Source of the DNA: Eledone cirrhosa
Taxonomy: Eukaryota
Reading direction: 5' to 3'
Assembly: GCA_964016885.1 (NCBI GenBank)
Contig: OZ024757.1
Span: 38,130,001 to 38,194,000, forward strand
Length of the DNA stretch: 64,000 bases
Positions 3,832 to 50,424 of the stretch are shown here, in pieces. Position 1 is the stretch's first letter; each line of letters begins with the position of its first letter. Both the position numbers and the translations under genes were made by a program. A model generated the notes under the pieces. The model searched no databases and had not been told where the DNA came from. It saw only the letters and a list, made by a program, of their open reading frames with translations.

Positions 3832-4621
3832 TCATTGGTACGGGTGTAGGGGACCTACAGGGGGGGGGGCGTTGTGGGAGGCCATAACCGGGTTTATCAA
3901 TATAGCTTGACGAAAGTTCCCGTCCTTCCCGAAAAAGTCGGCCCTTCTGTTTAATAGCTTGGTTCCGCCATGATGTATCTCGAGTGTCTCACTAAGACAG
4001 GTTGCAAATACCAGACCCACCTTTGACTGGGGGAACCTTTCTAACCACGGACCAGACCAGAGAGTGCGGGGTCTTTTCAAGTTTGAGCTTCCAGATCAAT
4101 TCAGAAGGGGCCGTACATTTCCTCTTTTCTATTCTGTTAAAGGAATGGCGAAGGTTATACCACCTACCTTTGAAGCTTGTCGCCGTGGATCCTATGTAGT
4201 GGTGCTCCGAGTTAGGGGTTGTGACCTTGCACCTGTAGACTACGTTTTTCGTCATGCATTCATTACTAAGGGGGCATAGTGATGGGTCTCTGCAATTGCA
4301 TGACTTCTTAAGCCCCAGCACATGTACCGCGTGGTTACCATCACTCGGGGCTGGCTGGGTAGCCGCCGCAATCAGCACAGGGTCGTTGGGTTCCGCTGTG
4401 CTAGTTGGGCCTCTCCGGGGTCTGGTGCGTCCCGCGTGGTGGATCCGTTGGGTGGCTCCGGGGTTTACGGTGGTATTAGAGGCAGTGAGTCTATTCCTAT
4501 TTATGCCAGCTATGTGCTGGGCTACGGAGCGTGTGGTTGAGTAGGAAAGTTTCACCGTGTGCCTGTTGAATATTTCATGGTATTTGTGGGCCCTAGGGAA
4601 ACATTTATCCAGTACTCTAAA
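3832..4621 (-). pseudogene. 5'-truncated Penelope-like retroelement ORF (Neptune-type): RT thumb end, Cys linker, GIY-YIG endonuclease
   Basis: Translation has CFPRAHKYHEIFNRHTVKLSYS, CNCRDPSLCPLSNECMTKNVVY...HYIGSTATSFKGRW, ELIWKLK, ICNL then a frameshift near 3995 to CLSETLEI..LLNRRADF; 5' end abuts (TA)n. Confidence 0.9.
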
Positions 4622-4688
<67 letters not shown>

Positions 4689-10560: not shown

Positions 10561-11138
10561 CGATATATATAAATCACTTTGTTTGGTACGAGTTTACTAT
10601 ACTATAATTCCCTTTCTACCTTTCTCCCCTTCTCTATGCTCCATTCTCCTCATTTCTCGATTTAAAATCACATTCGATCTAAACCAGTTAATAGTTAGGA
10701 ACAAATCGACTGACAAAATAATATGTAGGTTGCTTATGTCGTCGTGTTGTCAATGGTATCAGAACATTGAGATAAAAGACGGAAATAAACTAGAGCTGCA
10801 ATGTAATTTGAGTCTGGAAGTCTGACAACTATATTGAACGCTGACGAACTCTGACCTTTATTATCTTTCGCCAACGTGACGGTAGATAATATCTGAACCA
10901 AAGATATTATGATATTACACGGCCGTACTTGCGGGATTTTTCGCTATTTCAACTCCTTGAAGGATTTACAGTTTGTCAGATAGGTAATTACCAAAATTCA
11001 AAGCATCCCCTCTATCTAGATGAATTCGCGTGTGTCTGTGTGTGTATTTATATGTATATGTGTGTGTTTGTGTGTGTGTATTTATATGTTTGTGTGTGTT
11101 TGTGTGTGTGTATTTATATGTATATGTGTGTTTGTATG

Positions 11139-11170
<32 letters not shown>

Positions 11171-11297
11171 AAAGTTCTATTTAAATTGTTGGGATACAAC
11201 AAGCAAACATTTTTAAAACTGATATAAAGCACTCAACAAATATTTGGAGTAAAAATACGATATTATCAAATGGAAACTATATTTATAAAACCATATT

Positions 11298-11362
11298 TAT
11301 TTCATTATACATATTTCAAGGACACCAAGTTAAATTATGGTGTGCTTTCATCAGATAAAATA
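11298..11362 (-). ncRNA. hammerhead ribozyme (minus arm)
   Basis: Exact reverse complement of 11444-11508. Confidence 0.85.
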
Positions 11363-11443
11363 TAATAAAGATCAGTTTTATAAATAAATATTGACATACC
11401 CTTAAAAGATGCAACCATTACTGTTGGAAGCTCCCGGATATTA

Positions 11444-11508
11444 TATTTTATCTGATGAAAGCACACCATAATTTAACTTGGTGTCCTTGAAATATGTATA
11501 ATGAAATA
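11444..11508 (+). ncRNA. hammerhead ribozyme (plus arm)
   Basis: TATTTTAT-CTGATGA-AAGCACACCA(loop)TGGTGTCCTT-GAAA-TATGTAT-A-ATGAAATA. Confidence 0.85.
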
Positions 11509-11677
11509 AATATGGTTTTATAAATATAGTTTCCATTTGTTAATATCGTATATATATATATGTATGTTTGTATGTTTACGTAGTGCTTATACACACACAC
11601 ACGCACATATATAATTATATTTGTGCATATGTGTGTATATATATTTATATATGTGTATGTGAGTATATTTGTATGTA

Positions 11678-11712
<35 letters not shown>

Positions 11713-11713
<1 letters not shown>

Positions 11714-14966: not shown

Positions 14967-15039
14967 TTTCATTCTGATGAGCGATTTCAAACGTATGTGT
15001 CGAGCTCGTCTGTCTTCGTGAAACCTTTGGTAACTGGAA
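14967..15039 (+). ncRNA. type I hammerhead ribozyme with conventional stem III
   Basis: TTTCATT-CTGATGA-GCGA...TCGT-GAAA-CC-TTT-GG-TA-ACTGGAA; GUA cleavage triplet; one mismatch in stem I. Confidence 0.7.
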
Positions 15040-15087
15040 TAATTGTCACATGTTGTTTATTACATAACTATTACAATACATATAAAA

Positions 15088-23227: not shown

Positions 23228-23413
23228 AATTGTTTCTACTTTTGGCACAAGGCCAGCAATTTTCCCAGTGCATTAAAGGTACTTTAGTTCATCGACCCTG
23301 TAAGGATGAAAGTCAAAGTTAAGCTCGGCGGGATTTGAACTCAGATCATAAAGGGAGGTAACTCTATGCTTCAAAGCATGGCGTCCGACCCTCTACCGAT
23401 ACTGCCAATCCAT
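23228..23413 (-). mobile_element. SINE family A
   Basis: Full reverse-complement match. Confidence 0.9.
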
Positions 23414-26450: not shown

Positions 26451-26517
26451 TATTTTATCTGATGAGGACGTACTGTTGAAGATAGCTCAGTACCTCTGAA
26501 ATATGTATAATATAATA
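26451..26517 (+). ncRNA. hammerhead ribozyme related to the 11.4/42.3-kb family, with a different stem II
   Basis: TATTTTAT-CTGATGA-GGACGTACTG(loop)CAGTACCTCT-GAAA-TATGTAT-A-ATATAATA. Confidence 0.8.
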
Positions 26518-41895: not shown

Positions 41896-42075
41896 ACACG
41901 TGTAAGTTGGCTTCTATATAGATAAAAATATATTTCAAATAAAATATAATTTACAAATTAATAGAGATAATCGATAGAAGGTATATTTTATGTTAAGAGC
42001 TGTAGGCATGTTGTATTAGAAAGACGTAGGGATTTCTTTAAACGCACACACACACACACACACATATCATGCAGA

Positions 42076-42428
42076 GGTTATATTTAATTTGTTGGGATTC
42101 AACAAGCTTTAAAATGTTTATAACTGATATAAAGCACTCAACAATTTAGTGGATAAATATACAATATATTAACAAATGGAAACTATATATATAAAACCAT
42201 ATTTAGTCTTTTATACATATTTCAAGGGCCACCAAGGCAAATGATGGTGCGCTTTCATCAGATAAAATACCATACAGATTAGTTTTATAAATAAACATTG
42301 ACATACCCTGAAAAAAGACAACCTTAACGGTTTGAGCTTCCTGGATAGTATTTTATCTGATGAAAGCGCACCATAATTTGCATTGGTGGCCCTTGAAATA
42401 TGTATAATAGAATAAATATAGTTTCCAT

Positions 42429-42436
<8 letters not shown>
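42076..42436. mobile_element. ambisense double-hammerhead fold-back element, copy 2 (HHRs ~42204-42269 minus, 42349-42414 plus)
   Basis: Same leader, spacer and inversion geometry as 11170-11551. Confidence 0.85.
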
Positions 42437-50143: not shown

Positions 50144-50340
50144 TTGGCAATATCAGTGGATTGGCAGTATCGGTAGAGGGTCAGACGCCATGCTTTGACG
50201 CATAGAGTTACGGCCCTTACCATTCTGAGTTCAAATCCCGCCGAGGTTAACTTTGCCTTTCATCCTCACGGGGTCGATAAAATAAAGTACCAGTAATGCA
50301 CTGGGTGATCGCTGTCGTGTGGCAAAAGTAGAAACAATTA
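50144..50340 (+). mobile_element. SINE family A nested in the MITE
   Basis: 18-bp TSD ATTATTTT(T/C)ACACCAAGA. Confidence 0.9.
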
Positions 50341-50424
50341 TTTTCACACCAAGACAAATGTGGAACAAATATGGTCGCCAAATCATGTCTCAAATCCTCC
50401 ACAGATTATTGGGCAGCTGGCATC

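Follow-up and report, generated by a model that had tools for sequence, protein, structure and literature searches.

Paired opposite-strand hammerheads in an Eledone cirrhosa genomic window are probably very short inverted insertions of a Neptune/Nematis-type Penelope-like element

Two head-to-head elements and their Penelope-like parent

In this study we analysed a 64,000-nucleotide stretch of contig OZ024757.1 of Eledone cirrhosa (the window), which contains two short elements, copy A and copy B, each built of a long and a short arm joined head to head (Table 1). A motif scan finds CTGATGA...GAAA...ATA once on each strand of either element, at +11452 and -11354 in copy A and at +42357 and -42261 in copy B. 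That the two elements resemble each other, as the initial annotation had proposed, is borne out by their alignment (80.5% identity over 401 columns), and they are alike because the long arm of B begins at a fixed 5' edge and that of A two bases in from it. The inversion geometry they were said to share is common only roughly, the breakpoints relative to the core start being -86/-14 in A, with an ATA overlap, and -88/-9 in B, with a GT overlap. The arms of A differ from each other at 1 of 114 nt, and those of B by 7% and a 14-nt deletion. Hammerheads had been claimed on both strands of each element, and the core letters are indeed intact in all four arms, but stem I of the copy B minus arm is a duplex of only 4 bp. 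What was annotated as a leader is, in the ribozyme sense, the 3' tail of the element, and the sequence annotated as a spacer in copy A extends upstream into a 3' UTR in long genomic copies.

Table 1. Positions in the window of copy A, copy B and neighbouring features; L120 is a parent copy elsewhere in the genome, and offsets are counted from where the hammerhead core starts
Feature	Position	Strand	Description and basis
Left flank, (TA)/(TG) microsatellite	11040..11161	.	Likely target; read from sequence
Copy A long arm	11162..11440	-	Spans the 5' edge region (-86), the hammerhead and the inner site, with the tail reaching the outer site; end of the Penelope-like parent; matches L120:1415-1692 at 93.9% over 279 nt
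Copy A tail (annotated 'leader')	11162..11254	-	About 92 nt from inner to outer 3' end site
Copy A minus hammerhead, type I minimal	11298..11362	-	Motif scan, fold, covariation; predicted cut 11306/11305
Copy A 'spacer'	11369..11440	-	Parent sequence from the fixed 5' edge to stem I; collinear with L120:1415-1487
Hairpin/DPE-like word	11412-11427 and 42319-42334	-	
Copy A head-to-head junction	11438..11440	.	ATA microhomology; read from sequence; exact junction four times in the genome
Copy A short arm	11438..11551	+	-14 through hammerhead to inner site, without tail; 98-99% to both L120 ends
Copy A plus hammerhead, type I minimal	11444..11508	+	Motif scan, fold; predicted cut 11500/11501
Right flank, (TA)/(TG) microsatellite	11552..11713	.	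Read from sequence
Copy B long arm, second subfamily	42070..42349	-	Begins exactly at the -88 edge (ACTATCC); hammerhead, tail; 81% to L120 end
Copy B minus hammerhead	42204..42269	-	Core intact, stem I decayed; motif scan, fold
Copy B short arm	42348..42436	+	-9 (GT overlap 42348-42349) to near inner site; 14-nt deletion; without tail
Copy B plus hammerhead	42349..42414	+	Motif scan, fold

Palindromes between microsatellites are hard to assemble, and an origin of the elements as assembly fold-backs, or by gene conversion inside a segmental duplication, had to be weighed. Three contig sets (one independent sample) contain the family at depth and none spans copy A, a result that is uninformative either way. 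Against an artefact, the arms differ by point changes and a deletion and end at biologically fixed sites; the flanks of copies A and B are unrelated, and segmental duplication, raised in the initial annotation as an alternative, is excluded since the 5-kb flanks on each side have only scattered repeats in common. Either origin is thus hardly credible.

The suspected Penelope-like origin was upheld. The window elements are ends (pseudo-LTRs) of a Penelope-like element (PLE) of approximately 4.1 kb with reverse transcriptase (RT) and GIY-YIG domains, found elsewhere in the genome as L120. This locus is a near full-length tandem, whose two cores, at 1501 and 5637, have the same orientation and are separated by 4,136 nt. 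Its upstream core reads through the tail into the ORF, with a likely start at 1736 (MEFFKISS...), and between the cores lie RT motifs, a CNC..CPL..C linker and a GIY-YIG-like end in a frame broken by frameshifts. At L129 a frame of 436 aa is open between inverted arms, from RT motifs (MGS, YRDD) to the VVY..YVGST..FKSR of the endonuclease (EN); its best protein relatives, of 806-875 aa, show 32-35% identity (best E 3.8e-71), and a weak fifth match carries PF00078. Pfam gave nothing significant for five parent fragments and the L061 frame, with RT and EN unrecognised, and the motifs that we take to be those of RT and GIY-YIG domains supply these names. A Neptune element should have a Zn-finger-like linker between RT and EN, and CCHH in the EN; in the parent the linker CNCRNKSNCPLNNNC and H..C..C..H are present, in a spacing that does not literally match 'CX2-5CxxC'. 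The domain names also lean on the definitions described in PMC8557442; judged by these definitions, the two features exclude the Penelope/Poseidon and Hydra clades and make the parent a candidate PLE of Neptune/Nematis type.

The family also has the structure of EN+ PLEs: RT plus, at the C-terminus, the GIY-YIG endonuclease in a single ORF (L129; in frameshifted pieces in L120), tandem pseudo-LTRs with a hammerhead (L120), and an inverted 5'-truncated copy with a tail at one end only. Single arms run upstream into a common 3' UTR and endonuclease frame. Copy B, by its sequence, belongs to a sister subfamily with long copies of its own. A dispersed repeat of ~190 nt, SINE-like by size and spread, lies in the parent 3' UTR (L120:4155-4347) and occurs at about 20 window sites, for example 2153-2339, 23228-23410 and 50151-50343.

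The window contains further PLE and hammerhead-like pieces. A linker and GIY-YIG-like end at 3992-4630 (-) belongs to a different PLE family (37% to the parent endonuclease; Pfam GIY-YIG E=0.089). Another family (G10.1-C11.1, GAAATATATATA) is represented by single hammerheads at 2599 (-) and 35026 (+), which are nearly identical and both end in (TA)n; the former lies 1.4 kb downstream of that endonuclease fragment. At 26451-26517 (+), between (TA)n tracts, is a single-arm hammerhead of a third related family, which has the same stems I and III and another stem II. The motif CTGATGAG...GAAAC at 14974-15040 (+), in which the insert is longer, could be another hammerhead or a chance occurrence. 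A repeat search of the window gave output dominated by microsatellites.

Hammerhead fold and predicted cleavage

The copy A hammerhead folds as type I: stem I has 8 bp, stem II has 9 bp and contains a C-C mismatch, and stem III has 2 bp. In these hammerheads stem III carries a 4-nt loop, and A10.1-U11.1 replaces the usual G-C; its sequence, AUAUGUAU, is able to self-pair, forming a self-dimer in fold prediction. The predicted cleavage site is AUA^AUGAAAUA. Rfam detected no hammerhead in copy A at E<=10 (nine weak matches), and the rows examined for the window (150 of 238) are microsatellite-driven miRNA and snoRNA matches. With Rfam silent on copy A, the assignment is made on the motif and on covariation. 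Among 17 variants picked from the 58 in the collected loci and window, 94.1% of cells are paired and eight of nine stem II pairs have changed on both sides; these counts, of a kind that relatedness inflates, exceed those of 500 shuffles and of all slid controls. The core motif was required by the search, and its invariance is therefore not evidence.

The initial annotation held that each element could self-cleave whichever strand is transcribed. Minimal type I hammerheads of PLEs are reported to be weak cutters that need a second copy (PMC4209133; PMC6765202). In whole-unit folds of -133 to -183 kcal/mol, all seven CUGAUGA positions are paired on both strands of both copies, with a predicted unpaired probability of 0.00 at each of the 7 vs 0.36-0.94 in a single-arm copy. 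Whichever strand is transcribed, its single dimer-type hammerhead is predicted to lie buried in a hairpin of ~114 bp, and in either case the antisense arm precedes the hammerhead arm. On these predictions, self-cleavage of either strand of head-to-head elements is unlikely, since the one hammerhead of a strand, of dimer type, would be wholly base-paired with the antisense arm made ahead of it. Active ribozyme folds in both polarities, by which a viroid-like RNA would be recognised, do not appear in the fold predictions. Viroid-like RNAs are circles copied RNA to RNA, and their two ribozymes differ in sequence, whereas in the window elements the two arms are perfect complements.

Arm ends, junctions and shared variants among genomic copies

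The 45-nt core of copy A has 3,228 exact copies in the microsatellite-rich 3.0-Gb host genome, and the control has 0. Similarity searches with A and B return doubles with the spacer either way round to the tail, doubles with other junctions, and single arms. Because queries with the window copies select geometrically uniform top matches, we took the geometry from the first 100 exact cores on contig 1. From the core start, the 3' ends of these 100 arms fall at +100 (inner site, 50) or +192 (outer site, 47), with three elsewhere, and nearly all adjoin (TA)n. The arms represent 89 independent insertions, 51 of which have an adjacent inverted piece; an inner end is combined with an outer end in 42 of the 51, and 9 are otherwise. 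Exactly one tail is present in 71 of 74 close head-to-head pairs by script, L034 being a 72nd.

These data bear on the proposal that the double hammerhead is an ambisense element of non-autonomous kind whose RNA, made from either strand, cleaves itself and goes back into the genome as a unit, the arms being homogenised. Doubles of similar size do recur, 227 head-to-head pairs genome-wide having 92-102 nt between cores, and many doubles are among the top matches to each window copy; the size recurs because the 5' edge is fixed, and the junctions vary among the 50 pairs listed. Across 34 two-core insertions there are 32 distinct breakpoint pairs, at core spacings of 25-187 nt. The repeats among the 34 are L085/L086, which can be read as one double moved as a unit but is a local duplicate 0.9 kb apart, and L136/L137, in which the tail is on opposite arms. 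The exact junction of copy A occurs four times genome-wide, and its three twins all carry the tail on the other arm, so that the exact form of copy A is without a sibling; moreover, single-arm and long ORF-bearing copies have the same sequence as the doubles. With respect to L085/L086 (G000:C1:56024687 and 56025611), the two copies are inverted and agree in their odd junction, and between or beside them lies a piece of the parent PLE family's endonuclease. Several insertions of the parent and sister families are stacked in the same (TA)n tract, tail-to-tail or nested, at L012, L014, L023, L053, L054 and L143.

As annotated, both arms of copy A carry the stem II words CACACCA/TGGTGTC and both arms of copy B carry CGCACCA/TGGTGGCC, but the words are subfamily-wide rather than copy-specific. 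Of 247 arms, 149 at 104 loci have the A words and 35 at 26 loci the B words, and 63 of the former and 15 of the latter lie outside close head-to-head pairs; by sequence, the words behave as subfamily markers. Rarer variants were counted in columns limited to the core start through GTTTCCATT. Variants present in both arms of a pair number 11 in subfamily A, in 5 of 49 pairs, where shuffled pairing gives a mean of 0.3 and at most 3; in subfamily B there are 12, in 7 of 17 pairs, and shuffling gives a mean of 1.7 and at most 8. Most pairs, 44 of 49 and 10 of 17, are uninformative since they have no variant in both arms. Variants of one arm show no recurrence with the type of arm, and two of them are never common to a pair of loci. 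An apparent signal of unit inheritance in B one-arm variants (117 on the same arm vs 9) was an alignment-end artefact, falling to 6 vs 9 once the columns were limited. Rare variants are thus common to both arms far above shuffled pairing, and one-arm differences are not inherited; we infer that the arm is copied from one RNA species per insertion. That the inverted arm is rebuilt at each insertion, one part of the initial annotation, agrees with this result. The other part does not survive: breakpoints vary among the copies, an outcome that the initial annotation had itself named as a refutation; in the dispersed copies compared, junction, tail side and arm differences are not conserved together; the single hammerhead on each strand is predicted to be fully paired; and the ambisense unit, very improbable on this evidence, is rejected.

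Another possibility is that the single arms of ~280 nt, which reach from the edge to the outer site, form a non-autonomous family of SINE-like type that is driven by an internal promoter and has the doubles as its by-products. Single arms that lie between (TA)n tracts and have a fixed 5' end are indeed common (L022-L030), the promoter of Drosophila Penelope is described as of internal type (PMC2377424), and one variant is enriched in short arms (19/39 vs 4/25). However, a tree with weak support intermingles the short and long arms (17 changes vs a shuffled mean of 19.5, with 72 of 500 shuffles as low) and shows no separate SINE lineage, and the common variants are found in both classes except for two, each seen three times in short arms. 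We consider this origin unlikely.

A third possibility is self-priming, in which a single cDNA folds back or switches template to produce the inverted arm, in place of two target-primed cDNAs. Such an origin has been put forward for PLE inversions (PMC3846280), certain junctions consist of short palindromes or contain extra element-derived pieces (L101, L113, L131), and a single template would likewise yield two-arm variants. Fold-back predicts, however, that the second arm has a variable end or the same end as the first, whereas in 42 of 51 insertions it ends at the other fixed site, and either arm can be the longer; a single folded cDNA is accordingly a quite improbable source.

The 5' edge, a model of insertion and comparison with known elements

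The 5' stops of the 100 arms are concentrated, with 42 lying 78-88 nt upstream of the core and 17 exactly at -88, the A of ACTATCC. By hand count, the first 100 of 1,931 edge-bearing sites include 21 exact stops at the edge and 3 in the next 24 positions, a count that omits one non-C case, a point change in a continuing copy. In continuing sequence the genomic base that precedes the edge is C. When it is not C, it is in subfamily A genome-wide G at 256 of 673 sites and A or T at 417; the G share of 38% exceeds the ~15% expected from the partner strand (14.4% used, p=1.5e-51), and it is modestly in excess of an even one-third (p=0.006). Part of the excess can come from microhomology with GAC words or from the GGATAG end of the partner arm itself. 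In subfamily B, G precedes the edge at 42 of the first 100 of 263 sites, six of these right after (TA)n (hand count), and an ACTAT/ACTAC edge is retained in more distant subfamilies. Full-length L1 inserts have an extra G at the 5' end that is ascribed to the cap (PMC11702581), and the transcription start of Drosophila Penelope lies within the pseudo-LTR (PMC2377424; PMC6765202). We infer a capped RNA start at the ACTATCC edge.

Copies that retain an ORF behave differently. Besides L120, we collected 29 ORF-start copies by DNA similarity search; 18 reach the edge, one of them (L151) with an internal deletion just after it, and all 18, which have the pseudo-LTR upstream of the ORF, continue past the edge; 11 stop short of it. 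Four more ORF-bearing copies also continue past the edge. Edge stops therefore number 0/22 among ORF-bearing copies vs 21/100 (Fisher p=0.013), and long and short copies seemingly come from different templates. Since ORF-bearing copies never stop at -88, a simple linear mRNA starting there needs an extra assumption to account for them. A circular template cut by paired hammerheads, as put forward in PMC4209133, would fit as the source of the long copies, as would insertion into an existing pseudo-LTR (PMC11167929) or a read-through RNA. Five of the 18 edge-passing ORF-bearing copies (L153, L161, L169, L175, L177) appear to end ~7-25 nt upstream of the edge, a position found in 3/79 ORF-less arms.

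Between +16 and +31 of the edge, subfamilies A and B keep CAAC(C)...(G)GTTG, a hairpin of small size or a DPE-like word, while its neighbours change (Table 1). A canonical DPE lies at +28. Inspection by eye for a TATA box or canonical DPE at the edge gave GGTTG/GGTCG at +27 to +31, which is one base off and is also a side of the hairpin, and we do not count it as evidence.

Taken together, each window element is two head-to-head PLE ends, probably made anew at each insertion by two-strand priming. At a cut (TA)n target the element's enzyme would prime two cDNAs, one per strand, with the 3' sites at +100 and +192 as putative RT start sites like those shown in vitro for an anole PLE. In that system both target strands are cut and extended, and RT starts from two internal sites that bound the tail (PMC11167929). 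Both cDNAs would have the same RNA species as template and extend towards its 5' end; many would presumably run off a capped end at ACTATCC, and the two cDNA ends would be joined by 2-3 nt of microhomology after variable trimming, which would place the spacer in either orientation to the tail. The head-to-head product, its hammerhead masked on both strands, would most likely be a dead end. An inverted 5' copy and a one-ended tail are standard PLE structure (PMC8557442; PMC3846280); the literature searched, outside which lay subscription papers and supplements, contained no link of PLE inverted ends to strong-stop-like or twin-primed cDNA.

A broader scheme, which we put forward tentatively and regard as possible rather than probable, is a life cycle with two templates sorted by the ribozyme. 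Capped RNAs starting at ACTATCC in a lone pseudo-LTR, with one dimer-dependent hammerhead, would stay uncut and yield strong-stop-like run-off cDNAs with a cap-copied G, giving rise to the thousands of single or head-to-head inserts of 190-280 nt. Tandem transcripts with two hammerheads would be cut and circularised, and would give the more-than-unit ORF-bearing copies that never stop at the edge. Inverted Penelope ends would, in the same scheme, reflect two-strand priming at two fixed start sites.

The window elements are real sequence of a known kind. In common with described EN+ PLEs of the Neptune/Nematis type (PMC8557442; PMC3846280), the family has an RT-cysteine linker-GIY-YIG order, tandem pseudo-LTRs with a hammerhead, an inverted 5' copy, a one-ended tail and (TA)n targets. 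It differs in its tail of ~92 nt, compared with the 30-40 bp described, in window arms too short to keep an ORF, and in a sharp G-marked 5' edge that is absent from the published descriptions compared. Opposite-strand pairs of minimal hammerheads were already reported for PLEs in 2014: Cervera and de la Pena (PMC4209133) mention in one sentence pairs 100-700 bp apart in Schistosoma, read as truncated PLEs. Those are likewise type I with a palindromic, very short helix III, and the window family is distinguished by its 2-bp helix III, 4-nt loop and A10.1-U11.1. Poseidon of Anolis carolinensis (Frangieh 2024, PMC11167929) also has two fixed 3' ends defining a tail, AT-rich targets and extension of both target strands, the last shown biochemically there and predicted from sequence here; its ORF begins inside hammerhead stem II, whereas that of the present family likely begins ~45 nt beyond the tail. 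L1 twin priming (PMC11702581) likewise leaves an inverted 5' piece from a second primer, an extra G at full-length 5' ends and microhomology joins, but L1 inversions duplicate at most ~10 bp, whereas the elements described here have two copies of the hammerhead arm (>100 nt) and a fixed second start site. Animal non-LTR retrozymes resemble the window elements in their type I hammerhead, PLE kinship and non-coding short forms; they are described as head-to-tail tandems (bioRxiv 10.64898/2026.07.22.740005), of at least two hammerhead units, whereas both window copies are head-to-head.

Altogether, this study suggests that the first reading of opposite-strand hammerhead pairs in animal genomes should be inverted Penelope ends. 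The inverted ends, tails and tandems of PLEs and the role of their hammerhead are called unresolved in PMC8557442 and PMC11167929. The way in which short copies differ from ORF-bearing ones agrees with the circular template proposed in 2014, and thousands of young copies allow base-exact predictions of two RT start sites and of one 5' edge with a likely cap signature. The remaining value of these elements is as a family-wide mechanistic footprint for PLE copying.
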